Origin: Bacteroidia bacterium
Lineage (GTDB): Bacteria > Bacteroidota > Bacteroidia > NS11-12g > UBA9320
Length of the DNA stretch: 64,000 nt
Direction: 5' to 3'
NCBI GenBank assembly: GCA_965655315.1
Contig: CBFHGJ010000001.1
Coordinates: forward strand, 207,907-271,906
Shown: positions 4,118 to 53,251 of the stretch, piece after piece
How positions within the stretch are numbered: position 1 is the stretch's first letter
How the letters are laid out: each line of letters starts with the position of its first letter
Notes under the pieces: model-generated
What the model saw: only the letters and a program-made list of their open reading frames with translations
What the model was told of the DNA's origin: nothing
Database searches by the model: none
Position numbers and translations under genes: made by a program

Positions 4118-4375
4118 TCAGGCACGAATGGTTTGAATACAAATCCATTCATTCCAGATGAAGGTTATCATATAGATATGCCTTGCAAAATTTAGATGTT
4201 GATCATTACAAAGAGTTAGGGAGCAGAGGTAGGTTATGGATGATATACAAAGAATAGCAGCTAAATTGGTCATGCCAATTAGAAATGTCGTTTGACCCCA
4301 TACCATGGTCAATAAACCAGTGAGAATACATAATCGATAAACTAATGTTATTCGCCGCTCTGAGAATTTTGCCAT
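4118..4375 (-). CDS. small hydrophobic hypothetical protein
   Basis: 85-aa ORF with two hydrophobic stretches in the convergent intergenic space; no homology recognised. Confidence 0.25.
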   Translation of the reverse strand: MAKFSERRITLVYRLCILTGLLTMVWGQTTFLIGMTNLAAILCISSITYLCSLTLCNDQHLNFARHIYMITFIWNEWICIQTIRA

Positions 4376-33444: not shown

Positions 33445-35196
33445 ATGAAAAAGTATATTATTTACATAGGAATTTTGCTTGGAGGATTGCTTCTTGGTTG
33501 GTTGATATTTGGTACACCATTGTCTGGTGATAGTGGGCACAATCATAATGAGCTATCTGAGAACGGACAGATTTGGACATGCTCTATGCATCCTCAAATC
33601 AGAATGAATGAGGCAGGAGACTGCCCAATATGTGGCATGGATTTAATTCCACTTAAAGATTCTCAATCTGATGAGAACCCAATGAGTATTAAGATGTCTC
33701 CTAAAGCTATGCAACTAGCCAATGTTCAAACGGCCATAGTAACAAAAGGAAGTGCTCTCAAGGAATTAAAGCTAAATGGCAAAGTGCAACCAGATGAGAG
33801 ACAAGTTTCTACTCAAACGAGTCACATAGCAGGCAGAATAGAGCTACTAAAGATTAACTACACTGGAGAGCAGGTATCTAAAGGTCAAGTACTAGCCTAT
33901 GTGTATTCTCCCGAACTTATAAGTGCACAAAAGGAGTTGTTTGAAGCCCAAAAGCTTATTGAGTTACAACCGGCTTTATTTAATTCGGCCAAAGAGAAAC
34001 TCCGGAACTGGAAACTCTCTGCTAGTACAATAAATACAATAATTGAAACAGGAAAAATAATAGAGAATTTCCCTATTCGTGCAGATATTTCGGGTGTAGT
34101 TACAGATAAATTAGTCAATGTTGGAGACTATCTAAATCAAGGAGAACCTTTATATAAAATCTCCAACTTAAATAAACTTTGGATCTTGTTTGATCTGTAT
34201 GAGTCTGATTTGGGTTTTGTGAGTAAAGGAGACAATGTATCATATTCTTTAAATGCAATTGCAGGCAAGACTTTTAATGGACGGATAGCTTTTATCGACC
34301 CTATTGTGGACCCTAAAACAAGAACGGCTAAAGCTAGAGTGGAGGTGAACAATTCAAATAATAAATTGAAACCTGAGATGTTGGTGAATGGCACTATTAA
34401 ATCTGTGATTTCTGCTAACGAAAATACTATGGTAGTTCCTAAGACTGCTGTAATGTGGACAGGCGAGAAATCTATAGTTTATAAAAAAATGGAGACCGCT
34501 AGTGGAGTTAGCTTTATGCTCACAGAAGTAGTTTTAGGCCCTTCTCTAGGGGATTCGTATGTAATAAGTAGTGGATTAGAAGAAGGTGACGAAATAGCCA
34601 CTAATGGCACATTTAGTATAGATGCCGCCGCACAGCTGGCAGGTAAACCCAGTATGATGAATCCTGAAGGAGGTAAATCGTCAATAGGTCATAATCATGG
34701 AGGATCATCAAATGAAATGAATAACAAGCCAAATAAGGCAGTTTCATTAAGTTCAGAAGCTAATAAAAGCCTAGGTAAACTCTTTGATTCATATTTGAAA
34801 GTAAAAGACAATTTAGTAAAAGATGACTTTGAAGGAAGTCAAGAATCTTTAATAGCGTTTAAAACACAGCTTAGTCAAATCAGTATGAGTCTATTCAAAG
34901 GTGAGAATCATGATATATGGATGAAACATTCTGATGCACTAAAAAAACTCGCAGATAAATACACAGCATCAAAGGATATAGCGGAGGCCCGAGACAATTT
35001 TATTCATATCTCCGAGCAGATGATAATGGTTAGTAAAAGTCTTAAACCAAGAATGGATAAGTTGTACGTGCAGTTATGTCCTATGGCAGATAGAAACAAT
35101 GGAGCAAGATGGTTAAGTAAAGAAGAAAAGGTTTTGAATCCATATTTTGGAGAGGCTATGTTGAAGTGCGGTTCGGTTAAGGAGGAGTTAGAATAA
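33445..35196 (+). CDS. efflux RND periplasmic adaptor subunit with N-terminal HMBD and C-terminal DUF3347-like extension
   Basis: CSMHPQI...CPICGMDL; biotinyl-lipoyl and beta-barrel adaptor regions; ~150-aa helical C-terminal extension. Confidence 0.75.
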   Translation: MKKYIIYIGILLGGLLLGWLIFGTPLSGDSGHNHNELSENGQIWTCSMHPQIRMNEAGDCPICGMDLIPLKDSQSDENPMSIKMSPKAMQLANVQTAIVTKGSALKELKLNGKVQPDERQVSTQTSHIAGRIELLKINYTGEQVSKGQVLAYVYSPELISAQKELFEAQKLIELQPALFNSAKEKLRNWKLSASTINTIIETGKIIENFPIRADISGVVTDKLVNVGDYLNQGEPLYKISNLNKLWILFDLYESDLGFVSKGDNVSYSLNAIAGKTFNGRIAFIDPIVDPKTRTAKARVEVNNSNNKLKPEMLVNGTIKSVISANENTMVVPKTAVMWTGEKSIVYKKMETASGVSFMLTEVVLGPSLGDSYVISSGLEEGDEIATNGTFSIDAAAQLAGKPSMMNPEGGKSSIGHNHGGSSNEMNNKPNKAVSLSSEANKSLGKLFDSYLKVKDNLVKDDFEGSQESLIAFKTQLSQISMSLFKGENHDIWMKHSDALKKLADKYTASKDIAEARDNFIHISEQMIMVSKSLKPRMDKLYVQLCPMADRNNGARWLSKEEKVLNPYFGEAMLKCGSVKEELE

Positions 35197-42932: not shown

Positions 42933-44952
42933 AAATCATACCCATATCTATGACGACAGTGGCAAGCAAATATGTTGTTCTCTTGAAGAAAAAATAGATA
43001 GAAAGTCACCACCACCACCATTGGTGAATTCGGATGATGATGGTCATAATCATAGCAATGACCATTCCTTCGGAAATGAAAGCAATTGGAAGGTCTATTT
43101 ACCTGCTATTATCAGCTTTGTTTTACTCATTTCAGGTATTGCTTTAGACTATTTTGATGTTGCTTTCTTTAAAGGTTGGCTCAGGATAATATGGTTTGGA
43201 GTTGCATATATTCCTGTCGGGCTGCCAGTACTTAGAGAAGCATTTAGATCACTAAGCAAAGGTCAAATCTTTACAGAGTTTTTCTTAATGGGTATAGCCA
43301 CTATTGGAGCTTTTGCCATAGGAGAATATCCAGAAGGTGTTGCTGTGATGCTTTTCTATGCTGTTGGAGAATTATTCCAAAGTGCAGCAGTAAGACGAGC
43401 AAAGGACAATATCACAGCCCTTCTAGACGTACGTCCAAAAATAGCCAATGTATTAAGAAACAATTCCTTCCTTGAGGTCAACCCAAATGATGTTAAGGTA
43501 GATGAAACCATACAAATAAAGGTTGGAGAGAAAGTACCATTAGATGGTACTTTGCTTTCAGCCAAAGCCAGTCTAAATACAGCAGCCTTAACAGGTGAAA
43601 GTAAACCTCAAAGTATAGTAAAAGGAGGAAACGTATTGGCAGGCTCTATTAATATCGATGGAGTAATAGAAGTAAAAACAACAAAACTATTCAATGATAG
43701 TTCAGTATCGCGAATATTAGAGTTGGTACAAAATGCAACTTCCAAGAAGGCAAAGACAGAACTTCTTATCAGAAGATTGGCAAAAGTTTATACTCCCATT
43801 GTGGTCTATTTAGCAATTGCCGTATGCTTTCTACCTTACTTTTTTGTAGACGATTATGTGTTTAGTGATTGGCTTTATAGAGCCCTTATTTTCTTAGTAA
43901 TTTCTTGTCCTTGTGCATTGGTCATTTCTATTCCTTTGGGATATTTTGGTGGCCTTGGTGCAGCTTCTAAAAATGGCATATTGTTCAAAGGAGCTACGTA
44001 TATGGATAAGCTAAAAGAGGTAAACACAATGGTGATGGATAAGACGGGAACAGTTACCAAAGGAGTGTTTAAGATTAAGGATATTGAAGTAATAGGCAAA
44101 TATTCTAAAGATGAGTTTATGACTTTTCTTTTAGCCATTGAATCTAAATCTACTCACCCAATTGCCAAAGCAATTAGCGAATACCCATTAGACAATGAGG
44201 TTCCAGAAGCCACAGATATAAAAGAAATTGCAGGTAAAGGATTGCAAGGTATTATCAACGGCACTCAGGTTGTGGCAGGGAATAAAAAGCTAATGTCTCA
44301 TTTCAATATTTCCACACCAAAGGAAATTGACAGCATTGTAGAATCCATAGTATTAGTGGGTGTTGATGGTCAGTTTGCAGGTTATGTAACTATTGCAGAC
44401 GAGTTGAAAGAAGATGCCAAGGCAACCATTGCTGCCTTCAAGAAAGAAGGTATTGATTTAATAATAATGCTTTCAGGTGATAAGGACAGTATCACTCAAC
44501 AAGTAGCAAAGGAATTGGGTATCTCAAAGGCAAAAGGAGGACTATTACCTGAAGATAAATTGAATGAAGTAGAATTACTCAAACAAGATCCTACAAAAAC
44601 AATTGCTTTTATGGGTGATGGTATCAATGATGCACCCGTATTAGCAGCAAGTGACGTGGGTATAGCTATGGGAGCAATGGGAAGTGATGTAGCCATTGAA
44701 ACAGCAGATGTAATCATTCAAACGGACCAACCTTCAAAAGTCGTCACTGGTCTTCAAATTGCTAAATCCACTCAAAAGATTATTTGGCAGAATATCTTCC
44801 TTGCTTTTGGTATCAAAATCATTGTTCTCATATTAGGAGCAGGTGGTTTAGCCACAATGTGGGAAGCAGTTTTTGCAGATGTAGGAGTAGCACTATTGGC
44901 AATAATTAATGCAGTAAGATTACAAAGAATGCAGTGGTACGGATTTTGTTAA
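42922..44952 (+). CDS. heavy-metal (Zn/Cd/Pb-type) P1B ATPase with His-rich N-terminus
   Basis: DDDGHNHSNDHS; CPC motif (SCPCALV); DKTGTVT; GDGINDAP; no HMA domain. Confidence 0.8.
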   Translation: MINKNHTHIYDDSGKQICCSLEEKIDRKSPPPPLVNSDDDGHNHSNDHSFGNESNWKVYLPAIISFVLLISGIALDYFDVAFFKGWLRIIWFGVAYIPVGLPVLREAFRSLSKGQIFTEFFLMGIATIGAFAIGEYPEGVAVMLFYAVGELFQSAAVRRAKDNITALLDVRPKIANVLRNNSFLEVNPNDVKVDETIQIKVGEKVPLDGTLLSAKASLNTAALTGESKPQSIVKGGNVLAGSINIDGVIEVKTTKLFNDSSVSRILELVQNATSKKAKTELLIRRLAKVYTPIVVYLAIAVCFLPYFFVDDYVFSDWLYRALIFLVISCPCALVISIPLGYFGGLGAASKNGILFKGATYMDKLKEVNTMVMDKTGTVTKGVFKIKDIEVIGKYSKDEFMTFLLAIESKSTHPIAKAISEYPLDNEVPEATDIKEIAGKGLQGIINGTQVVAGNKKLMSHFNISTPKEIDSIVESIVLVGVDGQFAGYVTIADELKEDAKATIAAFKKEGIDLIIMLSGDKDSITQQVAKELGISKAKGGLLPEDKLNEVELLKQDPTKTIAFMGDGINDAPVLAASDVGIAMGAMGSDVAIETADVIIQTDQPSKVVTGLQIAKSTQKIIWQNIFLAFGIKIIVLILGAGGLATMWEAVFADVGVALLAIINAVRLQRMQWYGFC

Positions 44953-44966
44953 AGTATAAAGAAGCG

Positions 44967-45101
44967 ATGCACAGAGGACTTAAGCCAAGAATAGATAAGT
45001 TGTACCTGCTGCCATATCCTATGGCAGATAGAAACAATGGATCAAGATGGTGTTCTGTGGCATTAACGCGAACGTTTTTGCTAAACGTTTGGATTTGCTG
45101 A
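44967..45101 (+). pseudogene. remnant of a duplicated efflux-adaptor 3' end
   Basis: 44979-45050 aligns with 35043-35112: LKPRIDKLYLLPYPMADRNNGSRW versus LKPRMDKLYVQLCPMADRNNGARW. Confidence 0.7.
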
Positions 45102-45143
45102 TTCAACCTACACTTATGCTCCTGCGTCACAGATACCCATAGC

Positions 45144-45304
45144 CATCATTCTTCAAGCGGTGTACTTCAAACTCATATTCACATTGAGTTATAGAGATAA
45201 CTAGGAGCTTTTGAAAAGCAGAGGGGTACAAGTAGATCACTCCACACTTCAAAGGTGGGTGTTTAAGTTCAGACCAATGATTGAAACCAAGGCATTCCAA
45301 GGGT
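45144..45304 (+). mobile_element. IS6-family transposase N-terminal remnant (pseudogene with in-frame TAG)
   Basis: IILQAVYFKLIFTLSYRDN*ELLKSRGVQVDHSTLQRWVFKFRPMIE resembles IS26 Tnp DIILWAVRWYCKYGISYRELQEMLAERGVNVDHSTIYRWVQRYAPEME. Confidence 0.55.
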
Positions 45305-45545
45305 GAGTTTCGTGTCACAGTTGGGAACGTATTGACAGGGGCCATTTAAAATTTAAGGAGGTTGTAAGCAGATGGAGTTCCTAGTTTTTCATTTTTTTGG
45401 CAAAATATTTTTTTTCGTCTTTTCACCATTTTTTTGAAAAATATTTCATTCGCGCCATCGAGCCCCCTATATCTAAGTCCCTAAACGATATATAAGGTGG
45501 GATACCCCCTACCTGATAGGAGGGAGGAGATCCCCGGATCTAATT

Positions 45546-45700
45546 TTGATTGGCGCCATCTCACAATATAGAGTGTCGGTTTCATAGGAACTGAGTCTGG
45601 TATTTGTATTTCGAAACAGGAGGAGGAATGGTTTGATCCTGGAAGGGATCATGAATATTGATTGGCATATCCAGAATTTGAGATCTATTTCCAGGTAGTT
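45546..45700 (+). promoter_or_regulatory. three direct copies of (A)TTGATTGGC upstream of the serine recombinase gene
   Basis: Copies at 45546-45554, 45658-45666 and 45692-45700; an inverted copy lies at 46673-46681 downstream of the gene. Confidence 0.5.
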
Positions 45701-45841
45701 ATTGATTGGCCCAACTAAAACATCACATTTTGGGGTATACTTTTTTTTGTGATGTCCATTTTGGTAAAAAACATAGATTTTATGCTGCATATGTGTGTTT
45801 TGGCTATACTTTTAGGGTGCATACATAATAACCCTAAAAAA

Positions 45842-46465
45842 ATGAGTAATTCAATACTGTATACGAGAGTTTCATCCATAGATCAAAGAACAGATCGACA
45901 GAGAGTAAATGAAAAGAGTTATGACCTAGTTATTGAGGATAAATGCCCAGGGGATTTGGAAATATTTCTAAGACCAGAAGGTTCTAGGTTGAAAACTATG
46001 ATAGACAGGAATTTAGTTGGTTCGATTTCTGTTTGGTCGATTGATCGTTGTGGCCGTAACCTTCGGAACATTATTGACTTTATCTATTACACAACCGAAC
46101 GCAGAATTCCAGTAACCTTTATTTCTCAAGGTTTATGTACGTTAGATGAAAATGGTGATGAGAATCCAATAGCTAAGATGTTCATATCCATATTAGGTTG
46201 TGTTGCAGAAATGGAGAGAAGTCAGATAAAGGAGAGGCAAAGGCAGGGAATCGACTTAGCCTTGCTAGATCCAAATAAGTATTTAGGACGTAAACCTGGA
46301 AGTCAAGAAACAGTTCTGCAGTTTCTTTCGAAGAAGAAAAACAAACAGGCCATGGATTTACTACAGAAAGGATATAAGAATATTGAGGTTTCCAAAATCG
46401 CTGGATTACACCCTAATACAATATCAAAGATTAAAAAGTACCTTAATGTCTCAAATCCCGGGTGA
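45842..46465 (+). CDS. small serine recombinase (resolvase/invertase family)
   Basis: N-terminal ILYTRVSSIDQRTDRQ catalytic-Ser motif; C-terminal HTH; start taken at the Met in MSNSILY to give the canonical N-terminus. Confidence 0.85.
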   Translation: MSNSILYTRVSSIDQRTDRQRVNEKSYDLVIEDKCPGDLEIFLRPEGSRLKTMIDRNLVGSISVWSIDRCGRNLRNIIDFIYYTTERRIPVTFISQGLCTLDENGDENPIAKMFISILGCVAEMERSQIKERQRQGIDLALLDPNKYLGRKPGSQETVLQFLSKKKNKQAMDLLQKGYKNIEVSKIAGLHPNTISKIKKYLNVSNPG

Positions 46466-46672
46466 ACATTTTTTAAACTGTATTACAAAATACCATAACT
46501 TGAACCGTATGAGTCTCGGTGTTGAATCACTCCTGTAATATGTCGGAAGTGTATTCAAACCTAATTCACAAATGGATTTAGTCCGCTTGATAGCTGTTAA
46601 ACAGGGTTTGGAGAGATTTATTAGATAAGAATGAACTTACTTTAAACGGAGGTCAATTCCTTAGACTTAATT

Positions 46673-46681
46673 GCCAATCAA
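46673..46681 (-). promoter_or_regulatory. inverted copy of the TTGATTGGC motif downstream of the resolvase gene
   Basis: GCCAATCAA is the reverse complement of TTGATTGGC; flanks match the upstream copies (AATATTGATTGGCAATT on the minus strand). Confidence 0.45.
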
Positions 46682-46785
46682 TATTTCCACACTATCCAGA
46701 CCCAGAATTCCGTCTCAGACCATTTCAATGTGGAATTATTGCCATCAGATTCTAGTTCTGATTAGTAATAAAACCATAGCGTTCC

Positions 46786-46986
46786 TTACGACAAATTCTG
46801 CGAATTGTTTTCTATAGAATCATCAGTTTTGCTTTCAGGTAATTCAGATATGTTAGGTGTTTTTATTACTATGGATTGAAGTAAACGCCTGTATTGTTTT
46901 CTGTTTAAGCCAAGGGATTTCATAATTTCTTTGTTCATGATTGAGGTTTTATAATAAGTATGTGATACTTCAAAAACTATTTGCAT
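46786..46986 (-). CDS. small hypothetical protein
   Basis: 66-aa ORF; no motif recognised; may be spurious. Confidence 0.2.
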   Translation of the reverse strand: MQIVFEVSHTYYKTSIMNKEIMKSLGLNRKQYRRLLQSIVIKTPNISELPESKTDDSIENNSQNLS

Positions 46987-47027
46987 AAGGAGTTCTCTGT
47001 TGCTACTTTTATACCCAATCTTTAAAT

Positions 47028-48167
47028 ATGGATATTAAAATAGCATACCTCTCGCATAGGGGACGGTCAGATATGGAAGATGTGGTTGCTATGTTTTCTA
47101 AGGATGTAGGGCCAATCACATTTCAGTTAATTGATCATACGAATTCTTCAGAGTATTATTTACTGCATCGTGAACTTGAAAATATAGACTCGGAAAACTT
47201 TAAGAGACTGAGTAAGCTGATAAGGGAAGAAGTTGGATTAAAGGACGATGATGTTCTAGTTATTGTTTCACCTCGAGAACTTAATTCTCCATATAAACTT
47301 GAGAACTCATTTAAAAACTGGGTGAGTTACTATATTAAGAACAATATTATTATTAGGTCTAGCGGCTACGATAAGGTGACCGAGGGTAAGCCATATCTCG
47401 GCGGAGCCTACCAAATCATTGAAAACCTATTTCAAAATTTGGGAGGGATTGACCTAGCTGTATTAGTGGAAAATGAAAGAATTCATTTCGAACCTGAAGG
47501 TTGCGTTAATGATTTCGCTGAGGAGTTTAAGCAGGTTAAATACAAAATGCGGTCTGGATTCATCTGTGAAAAATGCAAAGAAGCAGCGTTGAATTCAGAA
47601 TCATCCAGAATGGATAAGGGAGCACTCCATCAGATAGAAAATATCTTGAACAGAATCGGTAATCGACTGAAGGATAATTATACGATTAATTATACTCCTG
47701 ATGAGTTAAAGATTGAGGTAATACTTGAACGCAATCCACATAAACTTTACGCTCGTCCTAGATGTAGGATGAAAATTGGCAATAAAACAATCAATTTTGG
47801 AAGAAGAGGGGAGTTGATGACTGTTCGATACGTTTTTTACTTAATAAACCATAACCTACCAATAGGAAAATATGATTTCATTGGTGATGGAGTTTATAAT
47901 GATGCAGCAGAAAAGTATAAACTGCTGTATGAAAAAATACAGGGGAGTGTCACTTCAAAAACATTAGGGGATTACATTGATAACCTATCCAAACTTCATG
48001 ACAGAATATCAAACCGGATAATTAATGAGGTTCAGAATGATTACATAGGAGATCTATACAGCCTTAGATCATTAAAGACAAATAAAACTGACACCTGCTA
48101 TATTATCAATGTAGAGCCTGATAACATTGATATCCCAGAAGAGCTTATGGAATTCAGAGTAGCATAA
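47028..48167 (+). CDS. hypothetical protein, possible TIR-like N-terminal domain plus Cys-cluster middle region
   Basis: KIAYLSHRGRSDMEDVV resembles the TIR beta-A motif (FxSFRGEDTR); DDDVLVIVSPRELNSPYKLENSF resembles TIR beta-C/alpha-C; CEKC and RPRCR Cys pairs. Confidence 0.3.
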   Translation: MDIKIAYLSHRGRSDMEDVVAMFSKDVGPITFQLIDHTNSSEYYLLHRELENIDSENFKRLSKLIREEVGLKDDDVLVIVSPRELNSPYKLENSFKNWVSYYIKNNIIIRSSGYDKVTEGKPYLGGAYQIIENLFQNLGGIDLAVLVENERIHFEPEGCVNDFAEEFKQVKYKMRSGFICEKCKEAALNSESSRMDKGALHQIENILNRIGNRLKDNYTINYTPDELKIEVILERNPHKLYARPRCRMKIGNKTINFGRRGELMTVRYVFYLINHNLPIGKYDFIGDGVYNDAAEKYKLLYEKIQGSVTSKTLGDYIDNLSKLHDRISNRIINEVQNDYIGDLYSLRSLKTNKTDTCYIINVEPDNIDIPEELMEFRVA

Positions 48168-48231
48168 AGTCGAAATTATCTGTCGCGCGACACTTGAGGA
48201 TAAGGGTTGAAAATAGGGCCACCTTGGCTCT

Positions 48232-49842
48232 ATGTTTATCAAGAATTACACATCCGCAGAACTTAACATCAACGAAGTAAAAGTAGTTGAAGTATTAAGT
48301 AGTTTCTACGATCATCAAGATCAAAAATCAGAAGAGCAGCTAAGTTACTCTTTAAAGTCCAATGGTCAACTGTTACCACTTACAGTCTCAGCAAAAAATG
48401 AACTGATTGATGGGTATCGAAGACTTAATCTACTGCGTAGATTAGGAGTGAAGTCCGTCAAAGTTCAAATTGTAGATGAGCAACCTACACTTGAGTTGAG
48501 AGTGGCTTTGAACACTACTAGGATAAAAACGGAAAACGACCTAACTAAAGAGGTCATTCAAATCTTTAAATCTGTACCCAAAAGACAGGGGAGAGGTAAA
48601 GGTGATGAAAAGTATAGTCGGTACGCCATTATTCAAGAGGAATTGGATTACCGTTGGAAATCTTCTACAGCAATTCGTCAGATTGACAAGATTATCGAGA
48701 ATGATTTCGAGGATAACCTCCTAATGAAAGGTATCGTAACAAAAGGTTGGACATTGACTGATTGTGAGCGATATGTTGGTGGCTTAAAGAAGCTTGACGT
48801 TGATCGTGAATTAGGATACACTGAAAAACTCAAAAAGGGAGAAATCAATATAAATGAGGCTGTCAAGTTCATCACAGAAACAGTTGTTCTAAGCACTGAA
48901 TACCAAGATACCTTTATCATTCCAGATAGATCTTCATCTTTCAATTTGAACTGTAGGGATATTAACCAGTTAGTTCAATTCAAAGGTCAAGTTCCATTTA
49001 TCTTTACGTCGATACCTTACTATTCGGTTCGATATTATAATACTGGTGAAGGGAGTGACCAGTTAGGGCACGAAAGAACGCCTGAACAGTTTGCTGCCAA
49101 CATTGGAAAAATCATTAGTAGGTTCGAATTCCTAATAAATCCCACATCAAATGTTATGATCAATATAGGAGAAACTTATAGAAATGGTTGTGCACTTGAT
49201 ATTCCAGGATTAGTAAAAAATGCAATCAAAGAACATACGGGACTCACTTATAAGGATACATTGATATGGAGTAAACCAAACCCTCATCCTCAAGGTGAAA
49301 AGGTGAATCGTCCTACGAATAATACCGAAGTAATACTCTGGTTTGTTGTAGATCCAGCTAAGTCCAAGTACAATCACCTGAAGTACACAGACGAGAAGAA
49401 ACAAATAGGTATTACCAAAGGAGCCAAGGATGTAAACCAAAATGGGGTTGTTTCAAAGAAATCCAAGTCTCTTTCAAAACCTTACAAGAAGATCTATAAC
49501 CATCTAGCAGCCCAAGATGTGAATAGAATGATCAAATGTGCTGTTGGAGGGAATAAGCCTGTTCAAGAAGCCTCTATCCTAAGTCACCCTGCAATGATGG
49601 CTGAGTTGTTACCTGTTGTGCCAATTTTAATGACGACAGACGAGAATGACCTAGTTTTTGATCCCTTCGGAGGTGTTAATACCACGGGTAGAATTGCCAA
49701 TCTGTTGAATCGAAGATATCTATCAACAGAACTAACATCTCAGTATTATCAAGTTGGATGTAAGGTTATGGAAAACGCACAGAAGGAGTTTAACCAGGAC
49801 GAATTATCAATAGTCCTAAATGAATTTAATGAAGCAGCATAA
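48232..49842 (+). CDS. ParB-like nuclease domain fused to an N6/N4 DNA methyltransferase domain
   Basis: LPLTVSAKNELIDGYRRLNLLRRLG is a ParB/Srx DGxxR motif; FIFTSIPYY is a motif IV variant; DPFGGVNTTGRIANLLNRRYLSTEL is a DPFxGSGTT AdoMet motif. Confidence 0.7.
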   Translation: MFIKNYTSAELNINEVKVVEVLSSFYDHQDQKSEEQLSYSLKSNGQLLPLTVSAKNELIDGYRRLNLLRRLGVKSVKVQIVDEQPTLELRVALNTTRIKTENDLTKEVIQIFKSVPKRQGRGKGDEKYSRYAIIQEELDYRWKSSTAIRQIDKIIENDFEDNLLMKGIVTKGWTLTDCERYVGGLKKLDVDRELGYTEKLKKGEININEAVKFITETVVLSTEYQDTFIIPDRSSSFNLNCRDINQLVQFKGQVPFIFTSIPYYSVRYYNTGEGSDQLGHERTPEQFAANIGKIISRFEFLINPTSNVMINIGETYRNGCALDIPGLVKNAIKEHTGLTYKDTLIWSKPNPHPQGEKVNRPTNNTEVILWFVVDPAKSKYNHLKYTDEKKQIGITKGAKDVNQNGVVSKKSKSLSKPYKKIYNHLAAQDVNRMIKCAVGGNKPVQEASILSHPAMMAELLPVVPILMTTDENDLVFDPFGGVNTTGRIANLLNRRYLSTELTSQYYQVGCKVMENAQKEFNQDELSIVLNEFNEAA

Positions 49843-51406
49843 GATGAAAGTAAGAAAGTATACATATAGGGTTGCAATACCAATGAACATCGATGCAGAA
49901 TCTCTTGTGCAAGAACTAAATATTGAATCTAGATTAACTCAAAAGACAGTGAAAAATAAGATAGTTAGGGTGATATCTAGACTAACTAGAACACATCGAA
50001 ACTCAAGATACTTTTACCATGATAACCATATCAGAATTTGCTCCAAGGAATTACAAAAAATACTAAACAGAGATTACGAAAAAGTATTAAATCTCCTAAA
50101 AACAGAAGGCATAATTGAAAATGGAAAAGATTATCTCCCTGGTGACAGATGCAGCAAATATCGATTAAAACACAAGTGTCAATATGTTAAATATAAATAC
50201 AAAACCATCACCATAAGACAAAAGGAGATTGAGAGTAAAACAAAACTATTAGACTCATACTTCAATGATAAAATCACTATAAAGAGTGATGATATTTATC
50301 CTAAACTCATAAAGTTTTACTCGGAAGTAGAAAAACAACTAAAAACACCTAAACAAATCAAAATACTTAAAAATTGGATAGGTATGATGTTACTGTTGAT
50401 AGAAGATATCGACAAAAATGAATTTTGGAAAAGTAGATCAGCATCAAATAAAAGATACAATTCTTCAATAACCAATATATCAAAGAAATTCAGAGGATAT
50501 CTAAAATATGACAATCAGCAACTGATTCAAGTAGATGTAAAATCTAGTCAGGTTTATGTATTAGCTAGTTTGCTTAATCATCAATTCTTTAAACAAAAAG
50601 GAGATTATTCATTCTATAGATTAACAAAAGATCTAATTGATAAGAAAACAAGAAAAGAGGTTATGCTTTACATGTTTTCCACATTAATGTTTGCGCAATT
50701 TTCTAGTAAACCTATAGGAGATATTTCCCCGGACACCTTAGATCATGAGGAATTTAAAAAGTTTCGAGACGCACCATTTTCTGAAGATTTCTATTCCCAC
50801 ATTTGTCATTTGGAAAATAACTCATTCCCAAGTTCAGAAGAAAGAGATGCAATTAAGTCTGGCATCATGTATCTACTCTTTCAAGACTTGTATGCACATC
50901 GTAAAAATGTTGAAAGTGTTAAACTATTCAAGCGAATTTATCCATTTGTAAACAGGTGTATAGAACGCCTTCTTTCAGATATTGGCAAGTCAAATTTCGC
51001 CTTGTTTCTCCAGAGGGCTGAAAGTTACCTAGTTCTTGATTGTATTGTACCTGAGTTTCACAGATTGTGTCCTGAAGCTCCAATTTTTACAATTCACGAT
51101 TCAATTCTAACAACTCAGAAATACAAGGATCAGTTATATGATGTTATGAATACGGTTTTAACTGAGAGAACGGGTATTAAACCCGGATTGACAGTTGAAA
51201 ACATAAAAGAGATAGATTTTACGCAAGAATCTTATGTCATCGAAATGGTCAATAGAATAATAAAAGATTCCAAGCCGTCACGTTATAAAGAGCTCAAGAA
51301 TTCACTTCTGAAAAATTGTATTGAAAAAGCTGAAGAATTTATTTCGGAGTGGAACGTAACCAGTAACCATATATCGAATGATAAAAAGGATATGGAAGAG
51401 AGCTGA
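49820..51406 (+). CDS. hypothetical protein with polymerase-like palm motifs (Pol I / T7-RNAP type)
   Basis: Motif A-like QVDVKSSQVYVLASLL (D239); motif B-like KKTRKEVMLYMFSTLMF (K279, Y284); motif C-like IFTIHDSI (H426 D427), in the canonical A-B-C order. Confidence 0.35.
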   Translation: MNLMKQHKMKVRKYTYRVAIPMNIDAESLVQELNIESRLTQKTVKNKIVRVISRLTRTHRNSRYFYHDNHIRICSKELQKILNRDYEKVLNLLKTEGIIENGKDYLPGDRCSKYRLKHKCQYVKYKYKTITIRQKEIESKTKLLDSYFNDKITIKSDDIYPKLIKFYSEVEKQLKTPKQIKILKNWIGMMLLLIEDIDKNEFWKSRSASNKRYNSSITNISKKFRGYLKYDNQQLIQVDVKSSQVYVLASLLNHQFFKQKGDYSFYRLTKDLIDKKTRKEVMLYMFSTLMFAQFSSKPIGDISPDTLDHEEFKKFRDAPFSEDFYSHICHLENNSFPSSEERDAIKSGIMYLLFQDLYAHRKNVESVKLFKRIYPFVNRCIERLLSDIGKSNFALFLQRAESYLVLDCIVPEFHRLCPEAPIFTIHDSILTTQKYKDQLYDVMNTVLTERTGIKPGLTVENIKEIDFTQESYVIEMVNRIIKDSKPSRYKELKNSLLKNCIEKAEEFISEWNVTSNHISNDKKDMEES

Positions 51407-51515
51407 GTCGATTAGGCATAACAGGGGTTGACTTTTAGAATAATTTCCTGTATACTTTATCGTATGTGTCTGATATAAAGACCATTATAACGTAAAATCT
51501 ATTATATATGACGGA

Positions 51516-51653
51516 ATGAACAAGCAAGATTCAATAAGAACAATCAAGGAGGAGCTAGCAGATGTTCCGAGAACAGACATAACGCTAATCATCAACCTTT
51601 TGAATAAATTAGCTCAAATTGAATACGACAATTACGTAAAACTAAACCAATGA
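51516..51653 (+). CDS. 45-aa ORF translationally coupled to the large serine recombinase (possible recombination directionality factor or regulator)
   Basis: MNKQDSIRTIKEELADVPRTDITLIINLLNKLAQIEYDNYVKLNQ; the stop overlaps the integrase ATG (ATGA). Confidence 0.3.
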   Translation: MNKQDSIRTIKEELADVPRTDITLIINLLNKLAQIEYDNYVKLNQ

Positions 51654-53212
51654 GAACAATTATCTACAAACGGGTAAGCACTGATGATCAAGCCGATCGA
51701 GGATATTCACTTCAACATCAGGAAAGTGTAATGAGACAATACTGTGAATTGAATAATTACCCTATTGTAAATATATACACTGAAGATTTTAGTGGTAAAG
51801 ATTTTAATCGTCCAGAATGGGTTAAAATTATAAATTATCTCAAGAAGAATAGGGGTGAGGTAGATCAGATATTATGTCTTCGTTGGGACCGTTGGTCAAG
51901 GAATCAATATTTGGCACTCAAAGAAATTAAAACACTAGAAAAATACGGAGTCCTCATATCAACGGTGGAACAGCCAATAGACCTTTCAAGCCCAGACAGT
52001 AAGGTGCTTTTGAGCTTATACCTGACACTCCCAGAAGTTGAAAACGATAAAAACAGTATTAGAACTACTGAAGGGATGAGGAGGTCGCGCATTGAAGGCT
52101 GTTGGACAGGTGCTGCTCCTCGTGGTTATGATAATTGCAAGATTGACAACAAGTCAACCTTAATACCAAACGAGGCTGCACCATACATAAAAGAATGTTT
52201 CGAAAGATTTGCTCTAGGAATATATTCAGCCAATGAAGTTAGAAAGTACATTAATGGAAAGAAGTATTCTTATAAACGTGGAACATTCTACTTGAGTAAA
52301 TCAACCTTCTATAATACAATCCGGAATATTGCATACACAGGTAAAATAAAAGTAAAAGCGTGGAAGAAAGAACCGGAGCAAATAATAGTTGGTCGTCACC
52401 CTCCGATAGTGTCTGACGTCCTTTTTAAGAGGGCCAATGATTATCTGGAGGGAAGGGTTAGAAATTGTGACTTTAAATCTGAAAAAAGTGACCTATACCC
52501 TTTAAAAGGATTTATGAGATGTTCCAAACACGATCGTGCTATTACCGCGTATAAATGTCAAAGTAGAAATAAAACTTGGCACCATTACTATCTGTGTACT
52601 AAACCAAAATGTCGAAGGTTCAGAGTGGATTGGGCGCACGAACAGATTAAAAACCTTTTGGATAAGATCTCTTTTACTGCAGGTATGGTTAAGGTTTACA
52701 AATCGCAGCTTGAGGCACTGATAGATAGAGAGGATGTCACAAGAAAGACTGAAATCAAGCGATTAAATGAGTCAATTGAAAACTATGGTCGTCGACAATT
52801 AAAACTACAGAATTCTTTTCTTGATGGAGATATTACCTCCGTTGATTACAATGGGATGAAGTCCAGAATTGAGTCTGAGATTAGTGAAAAAAAGGATCAA
52901 CTATCAAATTTGAAGTCTGTAAAGAGTCCTTTTAAGGTGTATCTCAATAAAACTCTTCCAATGATTGAAAACCTAAGCCAGTATTGGGATGAGGCGGATG
53001 GTGAGACTAAAAGGAAAATTCTTGGTTGCATCTTTAAGGAAAACTTCGAAAATTTTGATTTTGAGAGTTGCAACCAGATATTCACTCCAGAGATTGAATC
53101 TATTCTGTTGGCCAGCAAGGTTTTGAGAAATGATGTAAATAAAAAGGAGGTCAAAAATGACCTCCTGTCTATAATGGCGCCCTCACCTGGACTCGAACCA
53201 GGGACCTATTGA
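51650..53212 (+). CDS. large serine recombinase (integrase)
   Basis: TIIYKRVSTDDQ catalytic Ser; recombinase domain; zinc ribbon CSKHDR...CTKPKC; coiled-coil; the 3' end overlaps tRNA-Asn. Confidence 0.85.
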   Translation: MRTIIYKRVSTDDQADRGYSLQHQESVMRQYCELNNYPIVNIYTEDFSGKDFNRPEWVKIINYLKKNRGEVDQILCLRWDRWSRNQYLALKEIKTLEKYGVLISTVEQPIDLSSPDSKVLLSLYLTLPEVENDKNSIRTTEGMRRSRIEGCWTGAAPRGYDNCKIDNKSTLIPNEAAPYIKECFERFALGIYSANEVRKYINGKKYSYKRGTFYLSKSTFYNTIRNIAYTGKIKVKAWKKEPEQIIVGRHPPIVSDVLFKRANDYLEGRVRNCDFKSEKSDLYPLKGFMRCSKHDRAITAYKCQSRNKTWHHYYLCTKPKCRRFRVDWAHEQIKNLLDKISFTAGMVKVYKSQLEALIDREDVTRKTEIKRLNESIENYGRRQLKLQNSFLDGDITSVDYNGMKSRIESEISEKKDQLSNLKSVKSPFKVYLNKTLPMIENLSQYWDEADGETKRKILGCIFKENFENFDFESCNQIFTPEIESILLASKVLRNDVNKKEVKNDLLSIMAPSPGLEPGTY

Positions 53213-53251
53213 TTAACAGTCAACCGCTCTAACCAGCTGAGCTATGAAGGC
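53175..53251 (-). tRNA. tRNA-Asn (GTT)
   Basis: GCCTTCATAGCTCAGCTGGTTAGAGCGGTTGACTGTTAATCAATAGGTCCCTGGTTCGAGTCCAGGTGAGGGCGCCA: 7-bp acceptor stem, D and T arms, anticodon loop CTGTTAA, CCA encoded. Confidence 0.85.

Follow-up and report, generated by a model that had tools for sequence, protein, structure and literature searches.

In the Hin system the gene for a small serine recombinase lies inside a segment of about 1 kb that is bounded by short inverted sites. The res sites of the Tn3/Tn21 transposons are hot spots of recombination between elements, a process that yields mosaic transposons, and in the promoter invertons of the Bacteroidales Mpi/Tsr type inverted repeats flank short promoter segments, the recombinase being encoded outside them. 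The subject here is a small serine recombinase gene, and the short repeated sites that bracket it, in a 64,000-nucleotide stretch of low-GC Bacteroidota sequence (Bacteroidia bacterium, contig CBFHGJ010000001.1, positions 207,907 to 271,906; the whole stretch is called the window). A first-pass annotation of the window had proposed that the repeats form either a res-like site or a Hin/Gin-like invertible switch.

The locus resembles each of these systems in part. It shares with Hin/hix, Gin/gix, Cin and Pin a small serine recombinase whose catalytic domain is N-terminal and whose helix-turn-helix (HTH) is C-terminal; unlike Hin/hix, however, a second orientation is never seen, no 12-2-12 dyad is detected, there is no adjacent switchable gene, the upstream sites lie in arrays and the protein is distantly related. 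Like the resolvase-res pairs of Tn3/Tn21 it has sites just 5' of the recombinase promoter, and homology between related elements breaks at these sites, so that the flanking modules have different histories; it differs in that there is no fixed three-dyad res and no DDE transposase, in the second, inverted site at the 3' end of the operon, and in the host, here an integrative island that encodes a large serine or tyrosine integrase. The protein has Sin as its second-best structural relative, and a direct half-site-like element inside the downstream core recalls the Sin/beta arrangement of a dyad site I with direct half-sites at site II, but here no dyad site I was recognised and the copy number varies. 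Finally, the Mpi/Tsr invertases belong to the same phylum and Mpi is the best NCBIfam match, but in this locus it is the recombinase operon that the repeats flank, and the score falls far short of the family cut-off.

The module therefore has the geometry of Hin/hix and the evolutionary behaviour of Tn3/Tn21 res, with the defining feature of neither, as no second orientation and no three-dyad res is found. No description of such a module, or of this recombinase group, was found in the literature searched. Judged from sequence comparison, the repeats are probably the recombinase's own binding sites; the fuller model, in which these sites would act in the exchange of modules between islands, is given a probability of about 0.5.

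Four copies of a short motif bracket the recombinase gene

The gene and the sites are, in order along the window:
45542..45557, + strand: site copy 1, AATTTTGATTGGCGCC, core 45546-45554; orthologous to the one canonical site that relatives have upstream
45654..45667, + strand: site copy 2, AATATTGATTGGCA; within a diverged duplicate of the copy-1 unit
45698..45713, + strand: site copy 3, GTTATTGATTGGCCCA, core 45702-45710; promoter-proximal; the exchangeable recombinase cassette has its left boundary here
45842..46465, + strand: small serine recombinase of 207 amino acids (aa); PF00239, E=1.8e-18, residues 5-140
46672..46685, - strand: site copy 4, reading AATATTGATTGGCA on the - strand; orthologous to the downstream site that is conserved where the recombinase operon ends

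The first-pass annotation had reported three direct copies of the motif upstream of the gene and one inverted copy downstream, a clustering that it judged unlikely to arise by chance. This description stands, apart from a slip of 10 nucleotides (nt) in the third copy, which had been placed at 45692 and in fact begins at 45702. The exact 9-nt core TTGATTGGC is found at 45546-45554, 45658-45666 and 45702-45710 on the + strand and at 46673-46681 on the - strand. These four matches in 64 kb compare with 0.64 expected, and none of 100 dinucleotide-preserving shuffles reached four. It had also been foreseen that the motif might prove to be common; in the window it is not, since all four exact copies lie within 1,136 bp, bracketing the recombinase gene, and there are none in the remaining ~63 kb.

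Copies 2-4 match the 10-mer ATTGATTGGC exactly, while copy 1 has T in place of its first letter. Between copies 2 and 4 the inverted repeat extends without mismatch over 14 nt (AATATTGATTGGCA; 45654-45667 and 46672-46685, about 1.03 kb apart), with a local-alignment score of 28, against a maximum of 24 in 30 shuffles. The three direct copies lie inside 165 bp at spacings of 112 and 44 bp, and 131 nt separate the end of copy 3 from the recombinase ATG; the distance from the recombinase stop to the start of copy 4 is 208 nt, exactly as first reported. The motif is retained in every close allele. One contig, scaffold_23 of ERZ23491261 (KOPF15-1, SAMEA7392459), matches the window at 100% identity over the 10.7 kb that were compared. 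The consensus for the family is aAtTyT[A/G]AT[C/T]GGCA in the clade of the window and TTGnTyGGCA over the two clades described below.

A possible fifth copy, confined to the close lineage, lies further downstream:
47106..47118, - strand: GTGATTGGCCCTAC, inside a 379-aa open reading frame (ORF); 12 of 13 positions as in copy 3, score 11.9

Far outside the island, in a 545-bp intergenic region, there is a strong match to the version of the site found in relatives (ATTTCTAATTGGCATG; 4271-4286, - strand). This is probably a chance match, because nothing else in the region resembles the family.

The sites are conserved in position and orientation among relatives

With the window protein as query, 675 relatives of the recombinase were found at E<=1e-10. 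In the clade with 70-74% identity the synteny is invariant in about 40 loci: a variable cargo gene or a DUF2779 gene is followed by the recombinase, an ORF of 146-149 aa, a small ORF on the opposite strand and then the backbone genes. Throughout these loci the motif, in the form T-A-A-T-[C/T]-G-G-C-A, occurs at about -142 from the ATG on the + strand and again about 50 nt past the end of the two-gene operon on the - strand. The same layout is seen at 61% identity (L107), and at 80% identity (L113) copy 3 is unchanged and TTGATCGGC is present downstream on the - strand. The proximal upstream site sits at a fixed 23-29 bp from a conserved promoter block. When the downstream sites are aligned the core appears as a conserved island, exact while its flanks decay, and a second, direct half-site-like element ([A/G/T]ATTGACC or TATTGTGCC) is found 22-24 nt inside the core.

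The second gene of the operon encodes a SprT-like protein of 146-167 aa (examples are L024 4606-5055, L028 4628-5068 and L124 4618-5121), with a predicted N-terminal membrane helix (judged by eye), an HExxH motif and weak SprT-like matches. It shares a transcript with the recombinase in L124-L130 and in nearly all relatives from the window's clade that have at least 62% identity and a contig extending past the gene. It has been lost from the window, where it is missing from 46466-46672, and from L113; this loss is the reason why copy 4 of the window lies so close to the recombinase stop.

Two apparent regularities were rejected. Position-weight matrix matches just 3' of the stop codon in the clades of 51-65% identity fall in the coding start of the SprT-like ORF, and a strict co-variation at core position 2, where the window and L113 have G and the 70-74% clade has A, loses strength with L107, whose upstream site has A and whose downstream site has G. 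In unbiased searches for the longest inverted and direct repeats in all loci only the window stood out, short motifs being lost in AT-rich noise. No relatives were found in the viral-contig and plasmid collections.

A second recombinase clade carries the same motif

Use of the small opposite-strand ORF as query recovered alleles of the same island (L115-L117, L121 and L122) in which the recombinase is replaced by a 205-aa protein that is 30% identical to it. With this protein as query, a second clade of 569 relatives was found at E<=1e-20. In the loci of this clade (L124-L131, representing four independent lineages) two + copies of TTG[A/T/G]T[T/C]GGCA are present, at about -117 to -128 and about -180 to -216. 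A - copy follows 2-6 nt after the operon in L124, L125, L128, L129 and L130, though not in L126 or L131, and L129 has CCTTGTTTGGC at both ends.

The two clades of recombinase have in common the catalytic residues and the HTH recognition helix, PN[TS][IV]xK[ILV]K, and little else; furthermore, the backbone genes around the recombinase differ between them. The recombinase is thus the sole component common to all of the motif-bearing loci, and this is the main argument that the motif would be its binding site.

Homology between related islands ends at the sites

Copies 1-4 are all kept in the L115-type alleles, whose flanks match the window at 94.2-96.8% identity. Identity to the window ends exactly after TTGATTGGCCCA, 3 nt past copy 3, the sequences being unrelated from 45714, and it resumes just past the recombinase stop; the replaced stretch corresponds to 45714-~46478 of the window. 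A wider comparison was made by scoring the ends of homology for pairs of loci that share a cassette at least 88% identical. On the right, 28 of 66 ends are found 4-5 nt beyond the downstream core, on its outer side, and 16 of 66 are found 15-18 nt inside it, and the core is joined to six unrelated outer flanks. On the left the ends cluster at -159, -126 and -118, which flank the upstream site on either side.

Two loci show rearrangement between direct copies. In L123 (2476-3960) a gene for an Mrr-type restriction endonuclease is present between two direct copies of the copy-3 unit. L125 matches L124 except that it lacks the 86 bp separating two direct upstream sites, and the hybrid site that remains has its left flank from the distal site and its right flank from the proximal site. 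It is clear that mosaic boundaries lie at the sites. Such boundaries would be the footprints expected of crossovers, whether by exchange between elements, by integration or by deletion; on this reading the recombinase would have caused the rearrangements, by a crossover predicted to fall at or beside the Y|T step that borders the outer side of the core.

No inverted arrangement is found among related loci

The first-pass annotation had also suggested that the inverted pair bounds a Hin/Gin-like invertible segment, and that expression of the methyltransferase (MTase) gene downstream might be phase-variable as a result. The first of these suggestions is half borne out. Sites in inverted orientation do bound the segment, with the perfect 14-nt repeat in the window, and the geometry is conserved in relatives, even in the clade that is 30% identical. 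Inversion itself is seen in none of the loci that could be oriented. The orientation of the recombinase relative to both flanks is invariant wherever the flank can be oriented (about 40 loci of the 70-74% clade), and it is likewise constant in the 10 displayed contigs with an identical protein and in the 9 contigs reached through the small ORF. Six predicted inversion junctions (such as ATCATGAATATTGATTGGCAATTAAGTC and GGAAATATTGATTGGCATATCCAG, or ATCATGAATATTGATTGGCAATTAAGTCTAAGG and GTGTGGAAATATTGATTGGCATATCCAGAATTT, with the equivalents for copies 1 and 3) and three predicted deletion junctions (for example GGATCTAATTTTGATTGGCCCAACTAAAACAT) were looked for in the approximately 80 fetched loci. 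None was present in any of these assemblies, which report majority states and could miss a rare inversion, while the parental junctions were found in 19 and 17 loci of the close lineage. Both orientations, as expected of a Hin/Gin-type switch, are therefore not represented among the fetched loci, and a freely flipping switch is unlikely.

A Hin-like switch, in which the recombinase would invert the stretch of ~1 kb from one of the upstream copies to copy 4, its own transcription unit included, and so alter the expression of its neighbours, can nevertheless draw on several observations. The inverted pair around the recombinase operon is conserved in two clades, copies 2 and 4 share their perfect inverted repeat at a distance of about 1.03 kb, hin of Salmonella likewise lies within its own invertible segment of ~1 kb, and four contig ends fall within 18 nt of a site (4 of 25, in L023, L057, L113 and L128, against ~2 expected; the excess is not significant). 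Against these stand, besides the missing inverted alleles and inversion junctions, the two copies in direct orientation held by L028-L030 and the lack of an evident outward-facing target gene, the next gene being on the opposite strand. Furthermore, the base before the core in relatives is T upstream and mostly C downstream, which would block productive inversion if this base belongs to the crossover. A switch of this kind is accordingly thought unlikely.

The genes next to copy 4 bear on the second suggestion:
46786..46986, - strand: small ORF of 66 aa (50 aa in the calls of others), adjoining copy 4; homologue of the 62/68-aa ORFs of relatives
47028-48167: 379-aa ORF, conserved backbone

Both ORFs lie between copy 4 and the MTase gene, and their divergent starts are 41 nt apart, so that the promoter of the MTase operon would fall outside the 45.70-46.67 kb segment. 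Phase variation of the MTase is therefore unlikely, and this part of the first proposal is not supported.

Upstream copies are tandem duplicates of a larger unit

The three upstream copies had been taken at first for the subsites of a res-like site. Pairwise alignments, both among the units and with L042, give a different picture:
45460..45700, + strand: two extra, diverged tandem upstream units; unit 1 at ~45460-45600 and unit 2 at ~45610-45700

The stretch 45462-45597 aligns with the -240 to -90 region of relatives, namely a GC-rich element, then the site, then Box1-like sequence (see below for Box1). A diverged duplicate of it, 45617-45705, contains copy 2, and copy 3 with the true Box1 makes up a third unit. 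The flanks of the three units are about half identical and the 9-nt core is exact in all of them. By these alignments the window has an upstream site unit of ~100 bp in tandem triplicate rather than a fixed res of three subsites. Relatives have from one to four upstream copies, at differing spacings and sometimes in reversed orientation, most of them carrying one: L034 and L035 have an array of + + + - at 62-bp spacing, L039-L050 a - copy at -195 or -204 plus degenerate + copies, and L028 a - copy at -320. Additionally, L033 and L058-L060 carry a second + copy 37 nt past the downstream site. A dyad scan of 27 sites detected neither a 12-2-12 architecture nor inverted half-site pairs; the best axis, which falls on the Y|T step bordering the core on its outer side, had a complementarity of 0.37 against a mean of 0.27 (z ~2.8 among ~128 axes, not significant).

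This variability would suit sites that serve only as operators or in DNA architecture, bound by the recombinase HTH or by some other island protein (the product of the small opposite-strand ORF, or the ParB-like protein) with no strand exchange. The asymmetry of the motif, the fixed distance of the proximal copy from the promoter block and the absence of the motif from the 51-65% clades, which have a similar HTH, are also consistent with such a role. For an operator, however, the end of the operon, between convergent genes, would be an odd position in which to find a conserved copy, and homology boundaries, an insertion and a deletion coincide with the sites; the recombinase is moreover the one component that motif-bearing loci of the two clades share. 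Sites with a regulatory or architectural role alone are considered about as unlikely as the switch.

A classical res is less likely again. In this reading copies 1-3 would be subsites I-III of a Tn3/gamma-delta-type site at which the island, once excised, would be resolved from multimers or cointegrates, with copy 4 incidental. Resolvases are common on mobile elements, and three direct copies just 5' of a resolvase-type gene recall such a site. However, no three dimer-binding subsites at fixed spacing are present, the spacing being 112/44 bp here and 62/62 bp in L034, with a single copy in most relatives; the copies are duplicates of a larger unit, inverted half-site pairs are lacking, there is no Tn3-type transposase nearby, and the position and orientation of copy 4 are conserved across clades.

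Least probable of all is that the segment bounded by the sites is a small self-mobile cassette, which would move as a unit in the manner of a serine transposon and have the sites as its terminal repeats, several of them binding recombinase at one end and a single one or a pair at the opposite end: the cassette can be 89-99% identical between loci with unrelated outer flanks, has sharp ends at the sites, is replaced whole in the L115-type allele and has opposite-orientation subterminal repeats that recall the ends of the IS607 family, Tn7 and Mu, but it always occupies the same syntenic slot in related islands, its junctions are usually one-sided, no multiple copies, unrelated insertion sites or target duplications were seen, and its domain order is that of a resolvase and not of IS607.

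The recombinase and its 5' region

The recombinase is intact and has an N-terminal catalytic domain, in which R9, S11, R69 and R72 are invariant, followed by the C-terminal HTH. Against solved structures the best match is Gin (E=1.3e-10) and the second Sin (E=2.4e-10, residues 5-198), both alignments extending through the HTH; by these scores the sequence is equidistant from the two. It matches PHROG 125, "DNA invertase" (E=6e-31). The best NCBIfam match is the Mpi family, NF009949, at 32.9 bits against a cut-off of 272, so that the protein falls outside that family as defined. There was no match to the IS607 model, and the HTH is C-terminal and not N-terminal and MerR-like. Among the PADLOC defence models neither the recombinase nor the neighbouring backbone genes found a match, with the exception of the MTase gene.

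Two further features lie between copy 3 and the start codon:
45721..45754, + strand: Box1 promoter-upstream block; Box1, TTTTGGGGTATAC, at 45728-45740, inside a 7-bp inverted repeat CATCACA / TGTGATG
45810..45839, + strand: Box2 hairpin, TTTTAGGGT ... ACCCTAAAA; ends 2 nt 5' of the recombinase ATG

The Box1 block is conserved throughout the recombinase family. The Box2 hairpin is kept in relatives as distant as 51% identity; seven pairs are predicted, and at three of them the changes are compensatory (7 sequences have CG for GC, and 4 have AU for UA), in addition to G-U wobbles. It is probably a structure of the 5' untranslated region that limits translation. An Rfam scan of 44900-47100 at E<=1 gave no match, and a scan for sigma-70 promoters and terminators gave nothing above shuffles, the sigma-70 model being unsuited to Bacteroidota.

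On the other side of the upstream sites, at 45462-45540, is a GC-rich element (GGGATAC... GGAGGGAGG...CCCCGG). An element at the same position upstream of the site is seen in L024-L066, L067-L089 and L124-L126, and so in both recombinase clades; the stem sequences differ between loci and the hairpin potential is retained. It could be a terminator, an insulator or a part of the site.

Island context

From ~16 to 45 kb the window carries genes for mercury, copper and other metal efflux, and P-type ATPases. To the right of the recombinase the order is the 66-aa ORF on the opposite strand, the 379-aa ORF, a ParB_N-N6/N4 methyltransferase fusion, a 528-aa ORF and a large serine recombinase:
49820-51406: 528-aa ORF, conserved backbone
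51650-53251 region: large serine recombinase, the 3' end of which overlaps tRNA-Asn (53175-53251, - strand) by 38 nt

The 379-aa and 528-aa ORFs have no match in Pfam, NCBIfam, PHROG or PADLOC, and in many relatives they accompany the ParB_N-methyltransferase fusion. None of the neighbouring ORFs has a transposase domain, so that the linked DDE transposase with 38-bp terminal inverted repeats that marks the Tn3 type is lacking.

L014 is identical to the window up to 53245, inside tRNA-Asn, and diverges beyond this point, which places the right end of the island inside the tRNA gene. A displaced tRNA-Asn fragment marking the left end was searched for and none was found. L014 also lacks 47403-52730 of the window, from inside the 379-aa ORF to about residue 361 of the large recombinase. 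The junction, 47402 joined to 52731, was considered as a possible site event and rejected; as it has no motif and only 1-2 nt of microhomology, it is taken to be an ordinary deletion. In L108 residue 165 of the small recombinase is fused to residue 421 of the large one. Both loci are decayed derivatives in which the integrase catalytic domain is lost.

At the left of the region, 73 nt just 3' of a P-type ATPase gene (44979-45051) are 89% identical to 35041-35113, which is the 3' part of a CusB-like gene 10 kb upstream.

Discussion

The observations fit a conserved module consisting of at least one + site 23-29 bp 5' of a promoter block, a recombinase, normally with the SprT-like protein, and a - site at the end of the operon. 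In the model proposed here the C-terminal HTH of the recombinase subunits would bind the conserved inner half of each site, and the enzyme would then catalyse a crossover with an equivalent site, either on a related copy of the island or in a nearby direct copy. Such a crossover would fuse, resolve or swap modules, and the cassette and its neighbours would in this way be reshuffled among islands. The promoter-proximal copies may add autoregulation. The inverted orientation of the downstream copy would prevent the recombinase from deleting its own gene; direct sites would permit such self-deletion, and this may be why the inverted orientation is conserved although no inversion is seen.

Several points weigh against this model. 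The sites are asymmetric ~14-mers with no significant dyad, unlike the dyad sites to which classical small serine recombinases bind as dimers. The upstream copies vary in number and orientation. In a position-weight matrix scan the motif was not detected at the corresponding positions in the 51-65% clades, despite their similar HTH, and co-occurrence is the only link between protein and site. As regards the boundaries, many of the pairwise ones are not independent events, and some could stem from ordinary homologous or microhomology recombination at a conserved island of sequence. The right junction of the L115 replacement, at ~46478, is not at a recognisable site. Similarly, a clean crossover in the core between the type A and type B downstream flanks had to be rejected, because the type-specific differences begin slightly inside the site.

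A more far-reaching form of the model can be put forward, though it is doubtful at present. Here the site-recombinase-site unit would be a dedicated device for module exchange in the integrative islands of Bacteroidota, a serine-recombinase counterpart in its logic of integron or res-mediated shuffling. The asymmetric sites would dock incoming DNA, such as the Mrr gene of L123, or would allow cassettes, or the backbone and cargo halves, to be swapped between co-resident islands, while the inverted geometry would protect against self-deletion.

If the sites are what they seem, the module would define a large group of small serine recombinases in two clades, each with more than 550 relatives in the databases. 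Their candidate sites of ~14 nt can be read from the sequence, and pairs of recombinase and site would be raw material for orthogonal genome-engineering tools. For the organisms themselves, on the same condition, the module would explain how the islands of marine and freshwater Bacteroidota join blocks of cargo (metal resistance here; restriction and other defence genes elsewhere) to blocks of backbone in many combinations at one fixed point.

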